A DNA stretch of 64,000 nucleotides from a virus (taxonomy: Duplodnaviria > Caudoviricetes), in IMG/VR virus record IMGVR_UViG_3300025018_000091; one strand, given 5' to 3'. Positions within the stretch are counted from its first letter, which is position 1, and each line of letters begins with the position of its first letter. Positions 2,871 to 44,865 of the stretch are shown piece by piece. Under the pieces are notes generated by a model that was not told the origin of the DNA, ran no database searches, and saw only the letters and a list, made by a program, of their open reading frames with translations. Both the position numbers and the translations under genes were made by a program.

Positions 2871-5318
2871 TTATTTTCTATATGGAGTTGTAGGATAATA
2901 TGGAATCATTGGATCAGTTTTTGATTTTTCAATCATATCATAAAACATCTTTTCCCAATCTTTAGCTAAAGAATCTAATCCAAAATTCTCTTTTGCATAT
3001 TCCTGTAATACTAATCTATCATCTTCACTATTATTAAACATTGCATTAATGACTGCGCTGATAAAATTATTCTTATATTCTGAAGTTGTCCAATCACCAG
3101 GTATTAATGTCCCTCGTTCTCCTACTGTTTCATTTAAAGCTGCAATACTTGATGTAACCATACGCAATCCAGCAGCTTGAGCTTCCATTGCAGTAATACA
3201 ACTTGTTTCAGTAAACCAAGTAGGATGTATCCAACAACCTGCACTTAAAAATTCAATTGCCAATTCATCTTGATTTACTCTATCATGATAAAAAACACCC
3301 AATGACTCCATATCTTTTATTTGTTTCTTAAGTCTACTAATTAAATCAGCCTGTCCCTGATCATATTGTGCAGAATATTCCCAATTTTTGAAACCATAAA
3401 ATAAATGTAATTCTGCCTTTGGAACATGTGCCTTAATAGTTGTCCAACATTCTAGCAAAATTGGCCAACTTCTATCAGGACTACTACTATTAACTGCTTT
3501 AAATCTATTTCTTGGAACTTTTTTATTAAATCTGTTTAAATCAATTCCATTTCTAGTAACTGATACTTGTTCTGGATTAATATTATGTACTCTAATGATA
3601 TTATTTTTATGCCAATCAGATAACGCTAATACCTTATCTGTTTTTAATAATAATTCACTGGTCGCACCATTAGCAATTACATCATGAACCCATAACAATG
3701 TTACTTTTGCTTTTACATTATACTTATCTGCTAACATAGATGCATGACGTGATACAACCAAGATATCGCATTCTAAATTAGCATATTTTTCAGTTCTATA
3801 ATATTCAACACGATCATAAATTCCTTCATTATTTCCACAACTATTATAAACACGAACTCTATGACCTAAAGCAGCTAATCTTTTAGCCTGCTCAATTAAC
3901 ATTGTTTCGCTTCCACCAATTCCAAACTGTTTTACACTTATTGGTGTCCAAATTTCAACTCCATTACCTGCAAAAAAGATAATATCAAGCTTACCACCAA
4001 TAGGTTCGGCAATTGGTTCATCAACTTTTTGAGGCAATAATGCATCTTCATCAGCTTTGTTTTTTATTATAACCTTTTTATCTATTATACTGGTCATTAA
4101 TGATATTGATGCCGCATCTAATTCACCAATTTTTTCTAATTCTTTTATAGATTTGTAAATTTGACGATGTAATAAGTTTATTTCATAAAGACGTTTATTT
4201 AACAAAAATGCCGGCTCAGTTGGTTCATATCTTAATCCTCTATTTACGCTATCTAAAGCCTCTTCTATTCTTCCAAGCTTATTTAATGCAAAATTATAGT
4301 ATTTATGAATTTCATATTCTCTATCTGCAGGATTTATGAACAAAAGTGTTTTAGTTTCAGAACAACCAAGACCTAATTTAATGAAATAAACACATCTTTC
4401 CCAATTGCGTATTTCATCTCTTCCGCCCTGCTGTGCCAAATAATAGAATATTCGACCTAAAGCAAGATAGCCTTCTGCCCAAGATTCTTTAATAGCTACC
4501 GTTTTAAACGCCCACTTAAGTGCAGATTCATAATCTTGACGCATTTGATAAATATCAATCAATTTTAAGCAAGCCATTGCTCGCTCATCATCCCAACCAG
4601 ATACATCTATATATTTTGATAAACGCTCAATTGCCTCATCCATTAAATTAGCATTATAGCACTCAAGACCTAAATAATATAATTGGCGAGGGTCAGAATC
4701 TCCATGCTTTTCAAAATATGAACGTAAGATCCTTAAATTACGACCAAATTCTTGTACTTTTTTACTAAGATATCTTTGATGTTTAAATAAAACATCTTCT
4801 ACTGTTTGGAAAAAACAAGAAGGATCTTTATTAATCAATACTTCATGAACTGGATTTACCCAATGAAATCGATCTTTATTATAAACTAAACGCTCTCTAT
4901 AATGATAACATGTACATTTTCCATTGCTATCATATGCGTATTCATATGGAAACATTAAACATACTGATTTATCTTCACTATCTGGAAGATAATCTTGGAT
5001 TATTTTTAATAGATTTTCACCTTTAGTAATAATATCATCTGCATCAACCCACAATACCCATGGTTGAGTTGCTAAATCAAATGATCTTTGTCTCGCTTGT
5101 GAAAAACTTTCAATTAATCCAGTTTCAGAATTATTGCAATCTGTATATACTTCAAAAATATCAGCATATTTTTTCGCAATTTCAGGAGTATTATCTGTTG
5201 AACCAGTATCAACAATAACAATTTCTGAAACATAATCCTTTATTGAATTCAAACATTGTTCTAATAATGGTTCATCACGAACAATTAAACATAGTGAAAT
5301 AGGCGCGCGTTCAATCAT
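2871..5318 (-). CDS. Multidomain glycosyltransferase: GT2 (GT-A) + TPR + GT4 (GT-B)
   Basis: ISLCLIVRDE, IVIVDTGSTDNT, WVLWVDADD (DxD) and FHWVNPVHE; then TPR helices (DPRQLYYLGLEC, WAEGYLALG); then GIGGSETML, SSPDR and ETSCITAMEAQAAG. Confidence 0.9.
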   Translation of the reverse strand: MIERAPISLCLIVRDEPLLEQCLNSIKDYVSEIVIVDTGSTDNTPEIAKKYADIFEVYTDCNNSETGLIESFSQARQRSFDLATQPWVLWVDADDIITKGENLLKIIQDYLPDSEDKSVCLMFPYEYAYDSNGKCTCYHYRERLVYNKDRFHWVNPVHEVLINKDPSCFFQTVEDVLFKHQRYLSKKVQEFGRNLRILRSYFEKHGDSDPRQLYYLGLECYNANLMDEAIERLSKYIDVSGWDDERAMACLKLIDIYQMRQDYESALKWAFKTVAIKESWAEGYLALGRIFYYLAQQGGRDEIRNWERCVYFIKLGLGCSETKTLLFINPADREYEIHKYYNFALNKLGRIEEALDSVNRGLRYEPTEPAFLLNKRLYEINLLHRQIYKSIKELEKIGELDAASISLMTSIIDKKVIIKNKADEDALLPQKVDEPIAEPIGGKLDIIFFAGNGVEIWTPISVKQFGIGGSETMLIEQAKRLAALGHRVRVYNSCGNNEGIYDRVEYYRTEKYANLECDILVVSRHASMLADKYNVKAKVTLLWVHDVIANGATSELLLKTDKVLALSDWHKNNIIRVHNINPEQVSVTRNGIDLNRFNKKVPRNRFKAVNSSSPDRSWPILLECWTTIKAHVPKAELHLFYGFKNWEYSAQYDQGQADLISRLKKQIKDMESLGVFYHDRVNQDELAIEFLSAGCWIHPTWFTETSCITAMEAQAAGLRMVTSSIAALNETVGERGTLIPGDWTTSEYKNNFISAVINAMFNNSEDDRLVLQEYAKENFGLDSLAKDWEKMFYDMIEKSKTDPMIPYYPTTPYRK

Positions 5319-11093: not shown

Positions 11094-13338
<2,245 letters not shown>

Positions 13339-23398: not shown

Positions 23399-24181
23399 TT
23401 ACTGTTTTATTGTATCAAGACGTCCATATCTTAACATACGCAGACCGTGCTTGTTACAATACCTTATACCATCAATAATCTTATATTTCGCCTTGCCACA
23501 AATATTACAACCAGGAACACTGCACTTTATATCTGTATAATCAATTCGCCTTTTCCAAGCATCAATAGCACTTATAGATTTATTTTTCTTTGTATTCTCA
23601 GAATCTTTGTGCCCTATATGAACTTCAGACATATGCTTTCTTACTTCCTGTGTATAAATAGATTCATTATCTTTAGATTTCTGAATCATACTCATATTGG
23701 CTTTCTGTTCTGCAGTACGTTTAGTTCCTAATGCAGGATGTCCTTGTGTAGCAATTTGTTTTATTGTTGCTTCTCTTTGTTGCTGTTTGATTTTTTCTTT
23801 TTCTTCAATAGATAATGACGCATGCCAATCTCTCATCATTTTCTTAAACTTATCAGATTTAGGGGCATTCATTCCACCATAGGTAACATTATAGCCAGTA
23901 TTAAACTGTATATATGTATTATACTGTTTTACTAATTCCGTTTCAAGATAGTTTGCATCATCTTGCGATTTACAAGAAGCTATTATTTCAAATTTGAAAT
24001 TATCAATTCCATATTTTAAGAAAGCAAAATGAATAGCTTGACTTGGCTTATTTTTATAAAAAGCTCTACGATGATCGGAAAATCTTTTAGCGATATTAGT
24101 TGTTTGACCAATATATTTTTTGTCATTAACTGCATTTGTGATTATGTAAAGTGACCATATTTTCTGTATATGTTGCGCCAT
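23399..24181 (-). mobile_element. GIY-YIG homing endonuclease
   Basis: SLYIITN...KKYIGQT...KRFSDH...FEII...E...YN...GYNVTYGG, NUMOD3-like repeats, C-terminal CxxxxC...CxxH; own GGAGG RBS. Confidence 0.9.
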
Positions 24182-24980: not shown

Positions 24981-26129
24981 TTAATCGACCTCTTCTTCAA
25001 ATGACATAGATGATGATGTTGGGACTTCTAATTCATCTGACATATCTGCGTCTAATAAATCATCTACAGAATTATAATCTGTAGAATTAAAAACTGTGCC
25101 ATTCTCTAATAAATTCTTAATCATTTGAGCTGAGTTTATTGAATTATTTTGAGGAGATCTAGCATCTTGCTTATCAATCTTCTTTTCCATATCATCTAAA
25201 TAATCATAATAATTTGGATTTTCTGTCAAATGATCCATAGTTATTTCTGTAGCTACATGTTTATCATTTGTGTGTTCCATTTCAACTTTGATACCTTTAG
25301 CTAAAGCTTTTGGATCAAAATCTTCAGGCTTTTTCTTGTCAGCTAAACCACCGGGAATTTCATCTTCCCAAAGAGCATCTTCTGCCATCTTGTATAAAAC
25401 ACCCATAATTTGATCTGCTTGGCTTTGCATTCCAGCATCTTCAAAAATATCAATGGCACTATTCAAATAATCAACAGCTTTTGATACAGAAATACCTTCT
25501 TCTTGACCACTCAATATCTTAAACATTGAATCTTCAATTGTACTTGCAGTTGCATTTGGATTAGCGTTTGAATTTGTATTTGTATACATGTTTGCACCCA
25601 TATTTACATTTACATTTGGATTTACATTTAGATTTTTATTTGACAACGAACTTATCCTTTGTTTAACTGCAACCGCATCTTTAGGACTGGTGCTTAAATA
25701 TTGCTTAAGTAACGATATAGCAGCAATATTATTGCCGAGTTTTTGATAATTAATAGCCGCATTATATAAACATATGCTTACTGGTTTACCTCTGTAAGCC
25801 GCTAAATAAGCCCTTGCCGACTCGTCATATTTGCCTTGAGTATAAAAATTACCACCACGAGTAAATTCAATTGAATATAACTGTTCCTTTGCATTAGAAT
25901 CGTTTGGATTCACTGTTAAAACTCTATTAATTAATGAAAGCGCTGCATCAAAATTATTAAGCTTTTTATAACATATTGTTTGATTATATAGATAAGCAGA
26001 ACGATGATCTATCTCAAAAGCTTTAGCCCAATATTTTGCTGCATTTGTATAATCTTTTTGCGAAAATAACTCAGCAGCTTTATCACTAAATTGCTTAGAA
26101 TGTTGCTGCGTATAGGGACTACTTGGCAT
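24981..26129 (-). CDS. TPR protein with C-terminal DUF5661-like module
   Basis: Tandem TPRs (AAELF..KDY..AA.YW.KAF...AYLYN..ICY); GGLAD...LAKGIKVEMEHT...ITMDHLTENPNYY. Confidence 0.7.
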   Translation of the reverse strand: MPSSPYTQQHSKQFSDKAAELFSQKDYTNAAKYWAKAFEIDHRSAYLYNQTICYKKLNNFDAALSLINRVLTVNPNDSNAKEQLYSIEFTRGGNFYTQGKYDESARAYLAAYRGKPVSICLYNAAINYQKLGNNIAAISLLKQYLSTSPKDAVAVKQRISSLSNKNLNVNPNVNVNMGANMYTNTNSNANPNATASTIEDSMFKILSGQEEGISVSKAVDYLNSAIDIFEDAGMQSQADQIMGVLYKMAEDALWEDEIPGGLADKKKPEDFDPKALAKGIKVEMEHTNDKHVATEITMDHLTENPNYYDYLDDMEKKIDKQDARSPQNNSINSAQMIKNLLENGTVFNSTDYNSVDDLLDADMSDELEVPTSSSMSFEEEVD

Positions 26130-27406: not shown

Positions 27407-30400
27407 TTAGAACGACCCTTTGGAAGTCTTAGATAGTGCTGCTGACAATTGAGCAACTAAATTTTCATCGTTAGAACTTGCTGGGGCGAATTCTCCAGAT
27501 CCAATCATTCCGACTTGTGGTATATGTCCAGCTTCCTTACGAAGTACTGGTGTATGCTTTGCAACAACTCTCTTAAGAGAATCAAAGCTATCATCATTAA
27601 ACTTCATAATTTCATCAACCTGAAAAGAAACGGCTTGTCTATCATTATGACACAAACCACGATCTACCATGTCATAAGCAAGTTCATAAGCTCTTGCCAT
27701 TTTCACACGATACTTGTTAAGTTCTGCTTCCATTTCTGCCTTAACATGTTCCTTTACAAGTTCGCTTGCGAATTCAGATCCACCGTCAACCTGTCCCCAG
27801 TATTTCTTATAATAAGAAACTGCGTCCTTGTCTAAACCTTCTGCAATTAATGCGTCTAGGTCTGCCGGATCTAATTTACCTTCGCTAACTAATCTATGAA
27901 TAGCTTCTGCTTCTTTACGAACCTTTGGAGGTGCATTAGCAAGATCTAACATTGCTTTTTGAGTTTCCTCTAATCCTTCAATAGTTCCTAAATTACCAGA
28001 TGGTTTTACATCAAGTTGAGTTGTAGCATTTCCCTTTGGATGTGCTTCATGTAGATGAGGGCTGGTCTTCATTGCTTCTGCAGCTAACTTAGCGCGCATT
28101 GCAGATCTACCTTCTAATGAATTAAAGCTGGCTAATTCTACTTCTGCATTAGGATCTTTTTGAACGATTTCAGCAGCCATTTCTGGATCATCTGTCTTAA
28201 CTGCATCATTATCGTCAACTTCACCAGTATCACCTAAGCCAAGAATATCCATTAGATCTGTGGTATCTTCGCCTTCGCCTTCGTCACCACCCAATAATTC
28301 TTCTATACTAGCATCTGATCCTTCTTCTTCTAAAGAAAGATCATCTCCAGAATCAACATCTTCAATCATGTCACTAACTTCATCTAAAGCATTATCTGTA
28401 TCAGTGATTAGAGCAGATAAATCATCTACAGAATCTAGATCTATATCTGTTACACCCATAGTATTATCTCCTTCAGCGGCTAATGATTCAAGTTCTGCCT
28501 CGATTTCAGCGCGCTTTACTATAGCTTCTGTACCACGAGCGTATTTAACAAAAGCTGTCATTAATTTAAATCCATCAGCAACAGCTGTCTTGGCTTCAGT
28601 TAACGCGTCTTCTATGATAGAGCCAACAAATTCCTTATTAGAGGCAGTGACCGCGCCCTTATCATACATACCTGCAATCATCATTAATTCTTGTTGATGA
28701 TCTTGAAGTTCTGCAACTGATTCTTTCATTGCATTTGTTAATGCACCATTAAGTTCTTTTCTTAATGTATTAAGAGTTCTTGTTTCAGATGCGGCGGCAC
28801 CCATTTCTGGGGCTCCCATTTCTGAAGCAGCTTCGCCACCCATTTCATTTTGTTCTCCGGTTAATGCTCTAACAGCTTCAACTAAATCGGAGCTAAGATC
28901 TCTAACTTTTTCAGCTAATTCTAATGCAGTTTCTTTTGGATCGCCAGATTTGCCGGTGTCTTCAGCTTCACCTTCTGGGGCTGCATCCATTGGTTCTGCA
29001 GGGGGTGCAGGAGGTGCAGGTGGTGCTACTTGTGCTCCCTTTACAAGAGCGCGAACTTTATCGGCACCAAAAGATTTAACATTTTCAATAAGTTTGGCTC
29101 CAAATGCTTTAGTTGCAATATTGTTGTATAATGTATCAGTTCTATTTCCAGATAATTCATCAACAGATGCTGTCAATAGCAATTTGTCTCCCAAGAATAC
29201 TTCCCAACCACTCTTGCCATAGTTTTGTGTTCCGTCAGCATTAGATGCTTTTTGAAAACGTGCTCTTAGAGATGCTCTCTGGATCATTTCCTTACGCTTC
29301 TCTTCATCATTTACTTTGACAGATGCTGGACTTGGATGCATTCCATCAACTGGTCCTACGCCTGGGAATGGTTTTTGACCATTCATATGTTTATCACCGC
29401 TACCACGAAGTTGCTCATTCATCTTATCTGGTGCATATTTTGTTTTACCTGGAGTTGGCTCTTGTGGATTCTTATCACCCTGTTGGAAGTATGCTTCTTT
29501 CTTTTGTTCCAATGCTTGTTTAGCTAAGTTTACAACCGCATTACGACGCATTGCGCGTTCCTCGGCATCAGCGCGAGCAAGCATCTTCTTGCGCTCTAAA
29601 TCTCCGGGGTATAATTGTTCTGGACTGCCCATATTATCGACATCCATTTGCTTATCTCCATCAGTTCTCAACTTTTCATTCATTGGGTCTTTTGGATACT
29701 TTGGCTTACCTGGGCTTGGCTCGTTTTCATTGCCAGCACCTTGAAAATAACCTTGTTTATTAATATTTGATCCAGACATATTTTCCTCTTGTGTACTTGT
29801 GGAAGTGTTTGCTAACTTATCTAAGCTTGTTTTCATTTGATTTAACTTAGTCTCTATAGACGCCGTAACTACTCTAAGCTCAGAAACTAGGTCTGCTTCC
29901 ACATTAGTAGAAGCATATCTGACAGGGGTAGCTAATCCAGAATCCGTGTTGGGTAACACTGTCTCGTCCATCGCGACAGTTCCCGACGATTGATTAAATG
30001 CTATATCATTAGTATCTTCTTCTGCTTTTTTTGCAGAATCAGTAATTAACACTAATTTCTTCATAGCATCATCAATATCTTGCTTTAAACCTTCTAAACT
30101 TTGTGCCGATAAATTAAATGAAGAGCCTTCTCCATTTTCAGAATTCACATTAATTGATGCCGTGAATCTATCAGCAATTTTGTTAATTTCTTTTTCTTTA
30201 TCTTCAACATATGTATTTAATGTATTTGCTGCAGCAATAATATGCTTGATGTGTGCTTTAGGGTCGGCTCCATTAACTACAATTGATAACTCAATTGGAT
30301 TTAAATCTACGTTAATTTCACCATAACAAGTTTTATTTTTCATATGGGTACAGAAATCGGCTTCAGTGCGTGCAACACGATGACAACCTTCTTCGGTACA

Positions 30401-30976
30401 AATTGCACGACCAACAGCAGTTCCCATAGATACAGAATTCGAATACCCGGTTGCAACCTTTCGTGCCAAATCCGGGTAATTATGTTTATCTAATGCACAT
30501 AAAGCTATGACTCGCTTTAAATTGCGATCATAATAAGTATCAACTATAAAGCCTCTAACATGATCTACTGAGCTTGATTTATGATCTATGCAAAGAGGCT
30601 TTCCAATCCATTTCTTGTATGCTTTTACAAGTTCTTCTTCTGGAAAGATATCACCATTAGAATTCTTATACGGCTTTACGCTTAAATCGTTTGATTCCCA
30701 ACGCCAAGTATTATCAGACTTATCCCAACCTACTTTAACAGGCTCTCCAGATGCATTTATTTTTATTGTTCCATCATCATTAAGTGCTGCAGCTTCTGCC
30801 GCGTGCATCATAACTGCTGAAAAATATAAGAAATCCTCAGCTTTAGGTGCTATCTTTTTTAGGTTAGCGGCAAACTTTTTAAAATTATCTAAAATCTCAG
30901 GACTAACAGAGGGAATACAAGATGCAGTATCTTCTATTCTACTAATCTCTATCAATTCACCATTTTTAATAAACAT
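27407..30976 (-). CDS. Prohead maturation protease fused to a long scaffold region
   Basis: NSNGDIF...GKPLCIDH (His)...SVSMG (Ser)...C...C...CTH...ELSIVVNGADPKA herpes/HK97-type protease pattern, then about 900 aa of coiled-coil and acidic scaffold-like sequence. Confidence 0.85.
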   Translation of the reverse strand: MFIKNGELIEISRIEDTASCIPSVSPEILDNFKKFAANLKKIAPKAEDFLYFSAVMMHAAEAAALNDDGTIKINASGEPVKVGWDKSDNTWRWESNDLSVKPYKNSNGDIFPEEELVKAYKKWIGKPLCIDHKSSSVDHVRGFIVDTYYDRNLKRVIALCALDKHNYPDLARKVATGYSNSVSMGTAVGRAICTEEGCHRVARTEADFCTHMKNKTCYGEINVDLNPIELSIVVNGADPKAHIKHIIAAANTLNTYVEDKEKEINKIADRFTASINVNSENGEGSSFNLSAQSLEGLKQDIDDAMKKLVLITDSAKKAEEDTNDIAFNQSSGTVAMDETVLPNTDSGLATPVRYASTNVEADLVSELRVVTASIETKLNQMKTSLDKLANTSTSTQEENMSGSNINKQGYFQGAGNENEPSPGKPKYPKDPMNEKLRTDGDKQMDVDNMGSPEQLYPGDLERKKMLARADAEERAMRRNAVVNLAKQALEQKKEAYFQQGDKNPQEPTPGKTKYAPDKMNEQLRGSGDKHMNGQKPFPGVGPVDGMHPSPASVKVNDEEKRKEMIQRASLRARFQKASNADGTQNYGKSGWEVFLGDKLLLTASVDELSGNRTDTLYNNIATKAFGAKLIENVKSFGADKVRALVKGAQVAPPAPPAPPAEPMDAAPEGEAEDTGKSGDPKETALELAEKVRDLSSDLVEAVRALTGEQNEMGGEAASEMGAPEMGAAASETRTLNTLRKELNGALTNAMKESVAELQDHQQELMMIAGMYDKGAVTASNKEFVGSIIEDALTEAKTAVADGFKLMTAFVKYARGTEAIVKRAEIEAELESLAAEGDNTMGVTDIDLDSVDDLSALITDTDNALDEVSDMIEDVDSGDDLSLEEEGSDASIEELLGGDEGEGEDTTDLMDILGLGDTGEVDDNDAVKTDDPEMAAEIVQKDPNAEVELASFNSLEGRSAMRAKLAAEAMKTSPHLHEAHPKGNATTQLDVKPSGNLGTIEGLEETQKAMLDLANAPPKVRKEAEAIHRLVSEGKLDPADLDALIAEGLDKDAVSYYKKYWGQVDGGSEFASELVKEHVKAEMEAELNKYRVKMARAYELAYDMVDRGLCHNDRQAVSFQVDEIMKFNDDSFDSLKRVVAKHTPVLRKEAGHIPQVGMIGSGEFAPASSNDENLVAQLSAALSKTSKGSF

Positions 30977-30979
30977 CAA

Positions 30980-31261: not shown

Positions 31262-31909
31262 TTAGCTGGATTGTAATCTATCTTTTAGCTCCTCATTTAA
31301 CTGATCCTGCCTCTTGTTGTAAAGATCCATTATTAATGGCGTCTTTTTCTCTATTTTGGTTTGTAATTCTGTACTAACAGAATCAACCCAATTCTTCGCC
31401 AAGATATTTGATCGAATATGATCTATAATCCTATCATCAGCGATTTCTTCAATATCATCACATTGTTTTTGAATTTCTTCAATTGAAGTAACAACATTTT
31501 TTGCAAATTCTTTATCATCTAAACTATCAAACAGTTTAATAAAATCATTCACTTTAGTTTCTAAATCTTCAATAGAAGAAATAAAAGACTTCATAAGTTT
31601 TATAGTCTGTGTATCTGAAGCAAATGATTGCATAGCATTAACACATTTAAATGCTGATACTTTGAACTCATTAAAATTATTTATAGATTGATCTCTAAAT
31701 CTTCTAATGGCTGCACGGGCTTTTATTACCGAATCAGGAGTCATATCAGTATTCTCCTTAAATGGAGTTTTCATAATATTTAAATGATTAGATGCTAATG
31801 ATAATAACTTTAATGTAGTATTAAAAAAGATAATAGCTTTCTCTGCCTCTTGTTTTTCGGCATCAGACACTTCATATGTCATCTGAACAGTATAAGCTCG
31901 TTTAATCAT
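31262..31909 (-). CDS. Hypothetical coiled-coil protein
   Basis: Likely start MIKRAY at 31909, overlapping the phosphatase stop (ATGATTAA). Confidence 0.55.
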   Translation of the reverse strand: MIKRAYTVQMTYEVSDAEKQEAEKAIIFFNTTLKLLSLASNHLNIMKTPFKENTDMTPDSVIKARAAIRRFRDQSINNFNEFKVSAFKCVNAMQSFASDTQTIKLMKSFISSIEDLETKVNDFIKLFDSLDDKEFAKNVVTSIEEIQKQCDDIEEIADDRIIDHIRSNILAKNWVDSVSTELQTKIEKKTPLIMDLYNKRQDQLNEELKDRLQSS

Positions 31910-32651
31910 AAAAAAATCCGCCCGCATTTTCTGTAGGTCCAAAACCTCTTCCACCAGTATCGTTATTGTATACTCCAACTACTGGAACCTCATCTTCCTT
32001 TTTATTATGTTCTTTTATTGCCCTATAATTTTCTCTAATGGGCGATTGTTCTAAATCAGATAAATATAAAAAGTCATTAGGGAACGACTTTGTTTGGTCT
32101 AAATAAGGGGCAAAAGAACCCTGCGGACCACTTTCTAAAATGCTTCCACGATTATCATCGATGTATTCGCGTTCATTGGAAACTATATCAGTTTCTGAAG
32201 AATATTTATCTGGCTTACAGGATCTAATTAAGTTTTCATAAAGCTGTGTAATAAATGGCGATATTCCAACACCAAACCCTAATGATTTCGCCTCTGCTAT
32301 TGCTTTTTCTGGATTTTCATGCATATACTTACATTTAACGATTGCTATTACTAATCCAGTTCTATCTTTTCCTGCTTGACAATGAACAAAAACTGGTCCA
32401 TCTTCTAAAAATAACTGTTTAAAATCATGCTGAAATAAATTCATTAATGATGATTTTCTGCCATCAATTGGTATGATTACATGATCTATCCCTAGTTTAG
32501 TTGCTATATTGTGTATTCTATTTCCACTTTTTCTATCTAAACTAACAATTCTGTTAATACCAAGCTTATTCTTTAAATTAACAACATCTACGGGTGAAGG
32601 CGAACTACCCCTATATAAACCTTTCGCTACCTTCCTAAACCTGCGTATCAT
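31902..32651 (-). CDS. Cys-based protein-tyrosine/dual-specificity phosphatase
   Basis: GLYRGSSP...GINRIVSL and P-loop VFVHCQAGKDRTG (HCxxGxxR). Confidence 0.9.
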   Translation of the reverse strand: MIRRFRKVAKGLYRGSSPSPVDVVNLKNKLGINRIVSLDRKSGNRIHNIATKLGIDHVIIPIDGRKSSLMNLFQHDFKQLFLEDGPVFVHCQAGKDRTGLVIAIVKCKYMHENPEKAIAEAKSLGFGVGISPFITQLYENLIRSCKPDKYSSETDIVSNEREYIDDNRGSILESGPQGSFAPYLDQTKSFPNDFLYLSDLEQSPIRENYRAIKEHNKKEDEVPVVGVYNNDTGGRGFGPTENAGGFFYD

Positions 32652-34240: not shown

Positions 34241-35425
34241 TCAGGCAAACTTAAGAAGAAATTTCCTATAGTTTATTAAAACTGCAGAACTGGTTATTAC
34301 TGAATAAGATGACTCTTTATTAATAACTACATTGGCATTGATATTAATACCTCCAACTTTTGATGTGGCTATTTTAAATACATCTGCTAAAGAAGAGGCT
34401 AATTGTTGAATAGTATTAGCGCACAAATCTTTTGGTCCCTGAATATCACATTGTACTTCTACATTTTTGTCATCAGTATGAATATGTGCATTAGCTATTA
34501 ATTCTTCTTCTAATGCCGAACACAAAATGCGCCCAAACTCTATTGCATGATTAGTTTCTTTTGCTGATATTGGAATAACAAAATGATACGTAGGTAATAA
34601 AGCCTTGTATAATTGTTTGTGATGTTTCTCTGAAACACGAACTTGTTGTAATAACTGGTCTACTAATGACGTAACATTATCGGGAGTAGTGTTTGTATTT
34701 TGAGGATTTATATATGTACCCATTAATTGCTCCCATCTATCATCATCTGTTGTACTTGCCGGTTCTTGTACCGCCAGAGTTTGCACTGGTGTTTCTTCTG
34801 TAGATGGTGCTTTTTTAGATTTTTTTGACCACACTTTTACACCGGCTAAATAAGATTCTACTGGCGCAGTAAAATAACGATTGTTTTTTAATTCAGTAAC
34901 AAATCCAGTAATGTCACCTTCTTTAGCCTTTTCAACAGCAGAAGGAAATTTTTCTTTTAATAAACGAGCCCAATCAGAAACCCCCTCTTCCAATGTATCA
35001 TAAGCTCGAAATAAACTATTAAGATAATATTTTTGCTTTTGCTTGTCATATTCATGAGCCAATAATATAATAACATCACCTTTCCAATATTGATTTGGAG
35101 AACCAGCTGCCATTAAATTTCCAACATTATTATTATGTAATGCTCTAAATCCTGTTTCCATTCCAAGTTGACCCATTAAAATATCAACAGTAGCATCAAC
35201 ATTATCTTTAACACCTAACATTTGCATAGCCGCATTTTTTACAGCAGATCGTATAGTAGAAACATTTGGAGGATTAGTTTCTTTTTTTACAACTCTCCAT
35301 CCATTTTTATTAGCACGATTTATTGCATCTTGACTGGTATTTCTAATATCTTTGTCAACAAACCCAATACTTAACAAATTGAATTCATCTAATTTTTTAT
35401 AGAACATAGAGTCTAATTTAGTCAT
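34241..35425 (-). CDS. Glucosaminidase (GH73/FlgJ-like) peptidoglycan hydrolase fusion
   Basis: ILMGQLGMETG (catalytic Glu)...NNVGNL...FRAYDTLEEGVSDWARLL...YFTAP..Y, plus an extra C-terminal domain. Confidence 0.75.
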   Translation of the reverse strand: MTKLDSMFYKKLDEFNLLSIGFVDKDIRNTSQDAINRANKNGWRVVKKETNPPNVSTIRSAVKNAAMQMLGVKDNVDATVDILMGQLGMETGFRALHNNNVGNLMAAGSPNQYWKGDVIILLAHEYDKQKQKYYLNSLFRAYDTLEEGVSDWARLLKEKFPSAVEKAKEGDITGFVTELKNNRYFTAPVESYLAGVKVWSKKSKKAPSTEETPVQTLAVQEPASTTDDDRWEQLMGTYINPQNTNTTPDNVTSLVDQLLQQVRVSEKHHKQLYKALLPTYHFVIPISAKETNHAIEFGRILCSALEEELIANAHIHTDDKNVEVQCDIQGPKDLCANTIQQLASSLADVFKIATSKVGGININANVVINKESSYSVITSSAVLINYRKFLLKFA

Positions 35426-42616: not shown

Positions 42617-44149
42617 TTAAATCCACATCTTATCGTAAAGAGTATTTCCAGAATCAGTTGTTCCATATTCTGGATCCTCATCATTTGGTGCGTCTAAATC
42701 TTCTTTTGGAGAAATTCCATCTGGTAAACCATATAAATCTGGCTCTCTAGGACTTAAAGTTCCAATTAATTCATCTAATAAAGATTGCAGATCATTAATA
42801 TTATCAATTGCATTATCACCTTCTTCAGAATCATAATCCCTTCCGAAATCTAACTTGTCAGGACTTTTTCCTTCAAAATCTGGCATTGTTAAATATTCGT
42901 CCAGTTGACCACCTATAGGTATGGAGTCTCCATAGGCTCCAGAATCTCCTAAAATGGGTGAGGAATTAATTTGATCATCGATTGGAAAATCAATTGCGGT
43001 CTTCACAAAAGACGATAATAATATCATTCTTCTAGCAATCTTATTACTTTTCTTTTGACCTTTAGTTATACTACCATCATCTTCTATATAGGAATCATCA
43101 GATTTATATTTGTTTTTATTACGCTTTCTTTTTTTCTTTAGAAAATCATCAACACTCTTATACTTTTCCATATTCTGGTAAAAACCAGCCCCTGGTCCAT
43201 GCTTTGCTGGACCATCAACACCTTCGGTCTCATATAAATCATAATTTTTAAAAAGCGGTTCTTTAAAACGAGGTTGTACGACTATAGCCCTTTCAGACTT
43301 ATACTTCTTTTTATTCGGAGTAGGTTCATTTTCTCCACCGCCTCCTTGAAAATATGCTTGTTTTGTATTATTTTTCATGTGTTTAATATAATATGGATAA
43401 AACTGTTTGTATACTGGAATATTATTAGCAATAATGAAAGAAGTTATATTGTTCCATATATTCATCTTAGAAATATAATATTCTGCACGATCTGCATCCC
43501 ATTTAAAAGCATCATTTATCTTATCAGCAAATGAATTATGAGTTGCGATTTTTATGACTTCAGGATGCTTAGAAACATACTCTATTATAGAACTATCAAT
43601 ATCAAAATTAAGCTTGGATGCTAAATATATTGATCTAATCGCTCTATTCTTATTTGAAGTCAACGTAATTTCTGGAGATAAACATGTTTTAATTTTCTTT
43701 TCTTTTATATCTTTGAAACCATGTCCAGTAGGATCTATCACATTTTTTAAATCAAAAGATAGCAATAATGCATTGCATGTAAAATCTCTACTAAATAATT
43801 CTCTTTGCATATTAGTTAGTTTAGCAATGCCCCTATTATGCAATATATTATCAATTCCTGTTACCATAAAATTTGATGAAAAATCTATTTTTAACTTACC
43901 AATAAAAATAGAACTATGTCCATCAGACATGGTTTTTCTTAAAATATTATATTTCTTTTGCAGTTCTGTTGCAAATTCTTGTGATAGGTAATCACAAGTT
44001 TTATCGCCAGTAGTAATATCAATATCTGAGATTTTATCTAATCTATTAAGATACTTGTCTCTAGGTACACCCCCACATATTGTAGGGGCAGATACATCAA
44101 TTTCATTAGCAACAGACATCATTTGATTTAATAAATCACGTAATTTCAT
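42617..44149 (-). CDS. Divergent class II (CCA/poly(A) polymerase family) nucleotidyltransferase with an acidic C-terminal extension
   Basis: CGGVPRD...SDIDITT (catalytic DxD intact), FSRDFTCNAL, DPTGHGFKDIK; motif D altered to TSNKNRAIR. Start probably at the ATGA overlap (44149). Confidence 0.8.
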   Translation of the reverse strand: MKLRDLLNQMMSVANEIDVSAPTICGGVPRDKYLNRLDKISDIDITTGDKTCDYLSQEFATELQKKYNILRKTMSDGHSSIFIGKLKIDFSSNFMVTGIDNILHNRGIAKLTNMQRELFSRDFTCNALLLSFDLKNVIDPTGHGFKDIKEKKIKTCLSPEITLTSNKNRAIRSIYLASKLNFDIDSSIIEYVSKHPEVIKIATHNSFADKINDAFKWDADRAEYYISKMNIWNNITSFIIANNIPVYKQFYPYYIKHMKNNTKQAYFQGGGGENEPTPNKKKYKSERAIVVQPRFKEPLFKNYDLYETEGVDGPAKHGPGAGFYQNMEKYKSVDDFLKKKRKRNKNKYKSDDSYIEDDGSITKGQKKSNKIARRMILLSSFVKTAIDFPIDDQINSSPILGDSGAYGDSIPIGGQLDEYLTMPDFEGKSPDKLDFGRDYDSEEGDNAIDNINDLQSLLDELIGTLSPREPDLYGLPDGISPKEDLDAPNDEDPEYGTTDSGNTLYDKMWI

Positions 44150-44865
44150 ATATGTACCCATCGTTTTCTATTAACTATCTGATTAATAGTATTAGGTTTT
44201 ACATTATATTGTTTTGCTAATTCTGTTTGAGAACATTCGCCGTTATCCCATTTTCTTCTTATTTCTATAATATCTTCATTAGAAAACTTAGCATTCCATT
44301 GTTTTTCTCCTTGACAATTTTTGCTTATTAAGTGTTTTACTTCACCAGAAACCCGCCTATTTTTTAAAAAAGAAATAACTTCTTCAGAATGTTTTTTACC
44401 AAAAAAACCATTACGTTCACCAGATAATGATTTTGATAATTTATCTTTAACATCTTCTGTTAAATGTTTTCCGAAATTATGATTATTAGAACCTCTTATT
44501 TTATCACGAGAATCTTCATTCCATTTTAAACCAGAAACCCCTTCGCCGCCATCTGTTAAATTCATACCAACATTAGGATCTCTAGAATTAAAAAAAATAA
44601 TCCAAAACTTTTCTCTATCAAAAGCTTCTTGTTCCGTAATGTTATTCTCTAGTTCTTCAATAATAAAATTTTCCACACCATATTTATTAATTGACTTATG
44701 AAGATACTGATATGCTTTTTTTTCTCTATTCTTAGCTATCTTTATATGTTTTTTCCAACGATTATTAATATCAGAAGTTTTTCCAATATAAACCTTTCCA
44801 TTTATAAGATTAATAATCTTATAAACACAAAATTTATTATTTTGAAGTAATTCGCGAAGTTTCAT
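44146..44865 (-). mobile_element. GIY-YIG homing endonuclease (NUMOD3 + HTH)
   Basis: CVYKIINLINGKVYIGKT...RWKKH...GMNLTDGGEG...FFGKKHSEE...SQTELAKQYNV. Confidence 0.9.

Follow-up and report, generated by a model that had tools for sequence, protein, structure and literature searches.

The present analysis concerns an open reading frame (ORF) at positions 42617 to 44149, on the minus strand, of a 64,000-nucleotide stretch of DNA (hereafter the window) from the IMG/VR virus record IMGVR_UViG_3300025018_000091, which derives from an uncultured groundwater phage of approximately 444 kb. An earlier reading made from the letters of the window (the sequence-only reading) had taken this ORF for a second, re-specified CCA-family nucleotidyltransferase tagged with a scaffold peptide. 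The motif in question is real, but it is not a grafted peptide: it constitutes the N-terminal part of a conserved carrier gene in its own right, of approximately 250 amino acid (aa) residues, which in the window is fused in frame to the nucleotidyltransferase gene. Tentatively, and with confidence a little short of an even chance, we read the product as a minimal nucleotidyltransferase joined to a disordered prohead carrier that bears a scaffold motif and that a clade of huge phages has kept upstream of terL. The architecture of the ORF, its conservation, the alternation of its two parts between split and fused forms, the restriction of the motif to carrier and scaffold and the exchange of cargo ahead of it are direct observations; the comparative data suggest that the enzyme may be packed into the capsid and delivered along with the DNA. 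The features on which the argument turns are given below, structural predictions being those of AlphaFold2 (AF2) with its predicted local distance difference test (pLDDT) scores.

42617..44149, minus strand: fused ORF, nucleotidyltransferase plus carrier tail, 510 aa from the Met at 44149 (frame open from 44161)
43376..44149, minus strand: class II nucleotidyltransferase, head and neck domains alone (Pfam, phmmer, AF2, Foldseek)
42995..43375, minus strand: basic half of the carrier, net charge +13, ending in K-T-A, partly helical (AF2 pLDDT 55-82)
43295..43363, minus strand: shared bipartite motif of 23-24 residues, consisting of KxAYFQ, a Gly spacer and NEPTPxKxKY (regular expression, BLASTP)
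42995..43003, minus strand: second conserved K-x-A (K-T-A), directly before IDFP (alignment, translation)
42617..42994, minus strand: acidic, disordered half of the carrier, net charge -26, stop codon included (alignment, AF2)
27407..30979, minus strand: prohead protease with scaffold-like region, 1190 aa (phrog_18299 at residues 106-216, E 4e-14)
29690..29758, minus strand: scaffold motif copy 1, KQGYFQGAGNENEPSPGKPKYPK (regular expression, BLASTP; 15/23 residues identical to the enzyme-tail copy)
29432..29500, minus strand: scaffold motif copy 2, KEAYFQQGDKNPQEPTPGKTKYA (regular expression, BLASTP; weaker likeness than copy 1)

The ORF call itself spans 42617..44161 on the minus strand, and all residue numbers of the enzyme and its tail are counted from the Met at 44161.

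A peptide shared by the enzyme tail and the protease-scaffold

The peptide that stands right after the enzyme domain is KQAYFQGGGGENEPTPNKKKYKS. A six-frame regular-expression search, together with BLASTP of the tail against all ORFs of the window, located it elsewhere solely in the protease-scaffold, in two copies (E 4.4e-6 and 0.016), as the sequence-only reading had held; the near identity to both repeats that it had also described applies to copy 1, while copy 2 is a weaker match. Beyond its protease domain the product of 27407-30979 consists of a long acidic, helical stretch, and it is read as a putative protease-scaffold polyprotein. The nearest cultured homolog of the protease domain is gp19 of Bacillus phage G (16966-17559), at 32.7% over residues 35-239, followed by proteins of cluster C mycobacteriophages; none of these matches reaches the motif region, and a search of PDB sequences with the protease domain returned nothing meaningful.

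The association extends well beyond the window. In the complete genome of a 481-kb relative (G004) the motif is confined to the protease-scaffold, where it occurs twice, and to the tail protein. A phmmer search of 1.84 billion representative proteins, using a stand-alone carrier as query, picked up no fewer than 33 protease-scaffold proteins that are 1100-1580 aa long; the motif was the only part matched (best E 3e-12), and these proteins mostly contain two copies approximately 90 aa apart. Both families share the consensus K-x-A-Y-F-Q-G-G-G-G-x-N-E-P-T-P-x-K-x-K-Y, with occasional variation in the length of the spacer, and position tables reveal a sharp onset of conservation at K(-3) in the carrier and scaffold families alike. 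The sequence-only reading had let its case depend on conservation of the YFQ peptide in orthologs, and the peptide is indeed conserved in those of the enzyme tail and of the protease-scaffold. Within the window, the enzyme-tail and scaffold motifs are 61% identical at the nucleotide level and use the same codon at 8 of the 15 identical residues, which argues for selection on the peptide and against recent copying of the DNA; on the same figures gene conversion was ruled out as the source of the peptide.

A simple analogy is offered by UL26 of herpesviruses, a protease-scaffold polyprotein that is processed at release and maturation sites of the form (V/L)-x-A|S. The phage protein would resemble it in the fusion of protease and scaffold and in having candidate sites with Ala at P1 beyond the protease domain, while it differs in that its motif spans 24 residues and is not a short site, cleavage here being putative.

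Variation of the spacer was observed as well. A short-spacer form of the motif, YxQGTEEPTP as opposed to GGGGxNEPTP, is found in both carrier and scaffold of one relative (G002) and in the scaffold alone of another (G001); these forms, compared between loci L014/L015/L017/L018 and L003/L004, hint that the spacers of carrier and scaffold may co-vary in part. A candidate scaffold gene that begins at the motif (P0239) is located at a contig end and carries no information on this point; P0266 has a stand-alone look, but is a single case known from the protein sequence only.

The motif also holds two tyrosines, of which the second is 98-100% conserved in both families, the search pattern having required the first; in an unbiased alignment Y8 is at least 90% conserved and Y25 invariant. 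It is conceivable, if improbable, that enzyme and motif form an enzyme-substrate pair in which a conserved motif tyrosine of carrier and scaffold is nucleotidylylated so as to control head assembly, much as GlnD, GlnE and MntA nucleotidylylate tyrosines. The constant position of the enzyme gene beside a motif bearer, the loss of the tRNA-binding domains and the altered base- and ribose-reading residues of the enzyme would all suit such a pair. Protein modification is not known among PF01743-family enzymes, however, the structural neighbours returned by Foldseek are all RNA 3'-end enzymes, and the data in no way favour a role of the tyrosines as acceptors over one in docking or cleavage.

The carrier gene in its split and fused forms

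In the split relatives, i.e. all 11 of the 11 IMG/VR loci and a further locus (L045), the enzyme is unfused and measures 257-263 aa, the IMG/VR enzymes ending in ...PYYMKHIKGKANVSK followed by the stop codon. In the IMG/VR loci a further ORF, in the +1 frame and beginning MS(V/Q)NK(K/Q)(A/G)YFQGGGG, encodes the tail; its ATG or GTG lies 14 nucleotides (nt) ahead of the end of the enzyme's TAA, and a Shine-Dalgarno (SD)-like AAAGG(A/T) is present 6-9 nt upstream of it. Since the carrier has its own start and its own SD-like AAAGG, the two ORFs are coupled genes and not the two sides of a frameshift site; programmed frameshifting, which would need a +1 shift, was ruled out on these grounds.

The fused form was found in the window and in approximately 100 distinct database proteins from several sources, some of which retain the old carrier start (e.g. 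MSGKRAYFQ), although the counts of split and fused forms are not frequencies because the protein search was unable to return 257-aa proteins. In a quick maximum-likelihood tree built from 106 enzyme domains, five changes of the split/fused label are needed, at least three of them being forced by well-supported branches, and the fused proteins of the window and of P0001 are sister to split L001 with 99% support. On this tree, fusion or fission has happened at least three to five times.

That the closest IMG/VR relative, L001, is split might indicate that the fusion in the window is a frameshift artefact of assembly or sequencing and that the window is truly split. Such an error is very improbable indeed: P0001, which comes from an independent JGI contig and is 90% identical, has the in-frame junction of the window together with an identical 9-residue insert, some 100 distinct proteins from several sources are fused likewise, and the junction of the window is more than one indel away from the split form and is devoid of the SD-like AAAGG.

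The carrier is conserved along its whole length. Its two halves have opposite charge (family medians of +9 for the first and -20 for the second), and the second K-x-A site noted earlier in FVKTA was corroborated, its K and A each being at least 90% conserved ahead of IDFP. Both K-x-A sites are thus conserved, and they lie exactly at module borders. Conserved motifs of the acidic half include IDFPIDD, DFEGKxPxxLDFGRDY, GLPDG and a C-terminal YDKMWI/YEDKWNI, so that conservation extends to the last residues; YEDKW, DFGRDY, GLPDG and the other tail motifs were found nowhere outside the carrier in the window or the 481-kb relative. In AF2 models of 37 stand-alone carriers, mean pLDDT is 57.6 and few short helices are present, and in the model of the fused protein residues 280-390 are of intermediate confidence and residues 390-514 fall below 50. 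An ESM Atlas search with the carrier returned no usable match.

Relatives carry variable inserts exactly between the carrier K-x-A and IDFP, which comprise Cys-rich segments and NFDYGKGLYENMDKYKSV-type modules. The number of modules varies (alignment columns approximately 150-370; e.g. P0123 residues 121-200), with NFDYGKGLYENMDKYKSV-like, MLPPKEHGTxIYDWKNSPYQG-like and Cys-rich CxxC types, and the NFDYGKGLYENMDKYKSV-like module is similar to a segment, GPGAGFYQNMEKYKSV, within the basic half of the carrier itself.

The position ahead of the motif is occupied by different domains in different phages. Instead of the nucleotidyltransferase, or in addition to it, we found a SET domain (P0117), a DUF7919-like Cys-rich domain (P0116), a domain of approximately 140-165 aa without assignment (P0142, P0158, P0166), DnaJ (P0170), PcfJ with LRV/HEAT (P0175, P0177, P0126), and the enzyme followed by PcfJ and repeats (P0097); in P0020 a DUF5661 domain is placed between the enzyme and the YFQ motif. 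Locus L045 has a free 257-aa enzyme gene, then a SET-carrier at the usual 14-nt overlap, three further genes, terL and the portal gene, and this arrangement indicates that enzyme and carrier are the constant pair while the slot ahead of the motif accepts extra domains. To judge from these combinations, the tail behaves as a portable carrier.

A different kind of insertion was observed in locus L002, where a 200-aa HNH-like ORF (L002:5121-5720) lies between the enzyme and carrier genes and starts with MSQNK, as the carrier usually does, the carrier itself restarting at MYKKSYFQ. The presence of this mobile ORF marks the enzyme-carrier junction as an insertion hot spot. Separately, a TPR protein of the head block of the window (24981-26129, minus strand) ends in the same DUF5661 (E 4e-11) that is inserted in P0020, and this domain may therefore also move among head-block proteins.

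The main rival to the prohead-carrier reading, though rather unlikely in our estimate, draws on the same features. It supposes that enzyme and carrier are the two subunits of a cytoplasmic enzyme for the tailing or repair of RNA 3' ends, the basic half of the carrier being the RNA-binding subunit and the scaffold motif a common recognition site for protease or chaperone, or a turnover site, with nothing packaged. An enzyme without RNA-binding domains of its own, a strongly basic first half in the carrier (+13 here), the intermediate AF2 confidence at residues 280-390 of the fused model, and translational coupling with recurrent fusion, which typify the subunits of one enzyme, are all in keeping with it. 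It leaves unexplained why the enzyme should be replaced or joined by SET, DnaJ or PcfJ/HEAT domains ahead of the motif, why the motif is, apart from the carrier, confined to the scaffold, and why a long acidic half is conserved.

The nucleotidyltransferase domain

The following features define the enzyme, together with the comparison enzyme of the same window.

44057..44074, minus strand: motif A, GGVPRD (confirmed by translation)
44018..44026, minus strand: catalytic DxD (DID), invariant (confirmed by translation)
43871-43894, minus strand: third carboxylate, D93, within KIDFSSN (alignment of 97 homologs)
43784..43792, minus strand: motif B, SRD replacing RRD, invariant in the family (alignments, translation)
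43643..43657, minus strand: motif D, SNKNR replacing EDxxR; N170 at least 90% conserved, N172 and R173 invariant (alignments, translation)
11094..12338, plus strand: canonical full-length CCA-adding enzyme, for comparison (PF01743, PF12627 and PF13735; NF009814 326 bits against a cut-off of 290)

The sole Pfam match of the ORF is PF01743, the PolyA_pol head domain, at residues 28-157 (E 5.9e-13); Pfam returned nothing past residue 157, the tRNA-binding body and tail domains (PF12627, PF13735) included. In an AF2 model built from the family alignment, residues 1-262 exceed a pLDDT of 90, those after 262 belonging to the carrier, and Foldseek returned class II CCA-, A- and CC-adding enzymes and poly(A) polymerase (PAP) exclusively, over some 235-250 columns that correspond to head and neck. 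The best match among PDB sequences is the A-adding Aquifex enzyme (4wby, phmmer E 8.5e-9). In the alignment with 4wby, and in BLASTP against the CCA enzyme of the window, SRD stands opposite RRD, and SNKNR opposite EDpvR/EDGLR. In keeping with what had been reported from the translation, the catalytic motifs are intact and both substitutions are genuine: across 97 homologs D46, D48, D93, S124, R125, D126, N172, R173 and R176 are invariant, G30, G31, R34 and D35 are at least 90% conserved, as is N170, an N in place of the template D. A fixed SRD and xNxNR beside an intact metal site across the family argue that these are family traits and not signs of decay.

The domain shares with the Aquifex aeolicus A-adding enzyme (4wby, 1vfg), with class II CCA enzymes and with Escherichia coli PAP I the head and neck fold, GGxxRD and DxD, motif C and the Arg of motif D. 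It differs from them in having no body or tail, in SRD and xNxNR, in its location beside packaging genes and in its fusion or coupling to a carrier. The PF01743 head with GGxxRD and DxD is thus present as in class II CCA enzymes, while RRD, the EDxxR template and the body and tail domains are not. Scores are far below the respective cut-offs for the CCA models NF009814 (46 bits against 290) and TIGR02692 (37.8 against 438.8), and equally for the poly(A) polymerase models TIGR01942 (29.6 against 305.65) and NF008634 (19.8 against 702), so that membership of PcnB, which also requires EDxxR, does not hold. The enzyme is probably not a tRNA CCA enzyme; most likely it is an active template-independent extender of nucleic-acid 3' ends.

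That it would add nucleotides other than CCA, as the sequence-only reading proposed, is a weaker proposition. Motif D is altered as described, but its templating Arg is invariant, and in E. coli PAP it is this Arg that is decisive: E211A and D212A hardly affect the choice of nucleotide, while R215A randomises it (PMC2532741).

The same retention of the Arg, the small importance of the template E and D in PAP (PMC2532741), the PF01743 match and the PHROGs label of the family, 'tRNA nucleotidyltransferase', could be taken to mean that this is an ordinary second CCA-adding enzyme or a poly(A) polymerase acting on tRNA or mRNA and that its low-complexity tail extension is of no relevance. We regard this as quite improbable, given scores far under every NCBIfam cut-off (46 against 290; 29.6 against 305.65), the missing body and tail domains, SRD and xNxNR fixed family-wide, and a tail that is conserved to its last residue and forms a gene of its own in relatives. 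In addition, the window already has a canonical CCA enzyme at 11094, whose identity, asserted earlier, the NF009814 score upheld. No tRNA genes were found in the window. Among GenBank phages no near DNA match to the window was found, and just three distant matches to the enzyme domain (26-29%) were obtained, from faecal contigs, there being no cultured close relative.

The start of the enzyme was placed at 44149, in agreement with the sequence-only reading, because the family consensus N-terminus is MKLRELL and because this ATG overlaps, as ATGA, the stop codon of the gene directly upstream.

44146..44865, minus strand: GIY-YIG/NUMOD3 homing endonuclease, directly upstream of the enzyme and ATGA-coupled to it

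The homing endonuclease itself begins with MKLRELLQ, the consensus N-terminus of the adjacent enzyme, and its gene is missing at the corresponding site of the 481-kb relative. Given this start, the ATGA coupling and the absence from G004, the gene looks like an insertion that copied the start of its target, the enzyme gene. The HNH-like ORF of L002 represents a second case of a mobile nuclease capturing a gene start.

Possible packaging of the enzyme and its relation to known systems

The prohead-carrier reading fits the data best because the motif is exclusive to the scaffold and the carrier, because K-x-A stands at a sharp boundary of conservation, because different domains are tolerated ahead of the motif, and because the gene is close to terL. 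Under this reading the carrier motif would co-assemble with the scaffold, or be recognised as scaffold is, inside the prohead; the domain N-terminal to the motif, namely the enzyme here and SET, DnaJ or PcfJ/HEAT elsewhere, would be carried in; the prohead protease would cut at the conserved K-x-A borders and so release the cargo; and the enzyme would exit the capsid together with the DNA. A bolder version is possible, if somewhat doubtful, in which such loading operates clade-wide, the carrier copying the scaffold motif to bring fused or coupled passengers into the prohead for cutting at K-x-A, and the re-specified nucleotidyltransferase being injected to tail the RNA or DNA ends of host or phage at the onset of infection.

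The enzyme-carrier ORF lies two genes upstream of terL and shares its strand with the portal and protease-scaffold genes; synteny holds in G004 and L045. The order shared with G004 runs from a 600-aa Pro-rich protein through enzyme, carrier, a 336-aa and a 233-aa protein to terL, portal and, further on, the protease-scaffold. The gene is therefore within the late/head/packaging block, as is typical of ejection proteins of the kind that carry a capsid-targeting sequence (CTS) in phage T4. The earlier placement upstream of terL is accordingly correct, but the position is at the border between replication and packaging genes and not deep in the head operon.

CTSs on the internal proteins and Alt of T4, and the propeptides of phage SPN3US, are removed by the prohead protease (PMC7411985). 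In the T4 system (IPI-III and the Alt ADP-ribosyltransferase; protease gp21; PMC7411985, PMC5512222), as here, the enzyme is encoded with late/head genes, a short peptide ties it to the prohead core and a protease site lies at the border, the last two being putative in the present case, and delivery with the DNA is the outcome that we propose. The T4 tag, unlike the carrier, is 10-20 residues in length, stands N-terminal to its cargo and is present on several proteins, while the putative address here is the start of a disordered carrier of approximately 250 aa that occurs once per genome outside the scaffold. The ejection proteins of SPN3US bear propeptides of 111-130 residues that are cut by gp245 at AXE (PMC7411985, PMC10052503); they offer a parallel in a giant phage for long removable segments thought to target the prohead, and the SPN3US protease itself bears a targeting propeptide. 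Their sequences are unrelated to the carrier, the cut motif is A-x-E as opposed to a putative K-x-A, and in the present phage the protease is fused to the scaffold.

Packaged multi-enzyme polyvalent proteins have been predicted by a similar logic of architecture, and in these and in the MuF polymorphic toxins a constant virion-associated module is combined with swappable enzymatic domains that are read as injected cargo (PMC5512222). A constant module with interchangeable enzymatic domains is likewise present here, without a known anchor: Pfam, PHROGs and NCBIfam detected no known anchor domain (MuF, portal fusion or other polyvalent) on the tail. The constant module is, moreover, disordered and C-terminal, and the cargo consists of a class II nucleotidyltransferase, SET, DnaJ or PcfJ/HEAT.

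Several points weigh against packaging. Most relatives encode the enzyme without a covalent link to the carrier, and packaging there would require a non-covalent complex; since the junction is an insertion hot spot, some of the apparent cargo may consist of tolerated insertions and not of selected effectors. The carrier is C-terminal to its cargo, whereas the known capsid-targeting peptides are N-terminal. As judged from the 481-kb relative, each genome has one cargo-bearing motif protein, the cargo varying between genomes; a single tag on several unrelated cargoes within one genome, as in T4, is not seen there. The protease assignment of 27407-30979 depends on a single PHROG match, and neither Pfam nor PHROGs revealed a major capsid protein in the window. 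Finally, the gene sits at the edge of the packaging block and adjoins recombination and replication genes, RecA and DNA polymerase III alpha being encoded upstream of approximately 47.5 kb.

Most experimental cases of enzymes loaded into capsids by an address peptide concern T4 or one of a few giant phages, and we know of no described phage that delivers an RNA-tailing-type enzyme. New in the present system are a 'tag' that amounts to a whole conserved gene, its alternation between split and fused forms and the swapping of cargo ahead of the motif. If the prohead-carrier reading is correct, the address would be a scaffold mimic on a dedicated disordered carrier whose constant passenger is an RNA-tailing-type enzyme, which would be the first virion-delivered member of the class II nucleotidyltransferase family and would define a new branch of it in which the template is altered and the tRNA-binding domains are missing. 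The 24-residue motif and its K-x-A borders would then constitute a compact code by which virion cargo of uncultured huge phages could be predicted, and the natural series of fusions and fissions would reveal which parts must remain together. Should packaging be refuted, the enzyme-carrier pair would still constitute an undescribed two-part nucleotidyltransferase.

Further genes of the head block deserve mention. Between the portal and protease-scaffold genes lie a dual-specificity/Tyr phosphatase (31902-32651, minus strand; PF03162, E 1.7e-11) and a glucosaminidase-like protein (34241-35425, minus strand), which by their location are candidates for further head-associated enzymes. A second GIY-YIG homing endonuclease (23399-24181, minus strand; phrog_314, E 3.6e-32) is situated inside the head block. 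In L045, terL (L045:9315-12281) encodes 988 aa with a weak LAGLIDADG_3 match and probably contains an intein or an inserted endonuclease, and two DUF723 ORFs (L045:82-1410 and 3977-4879) flank the genes upstream of the enzyme.

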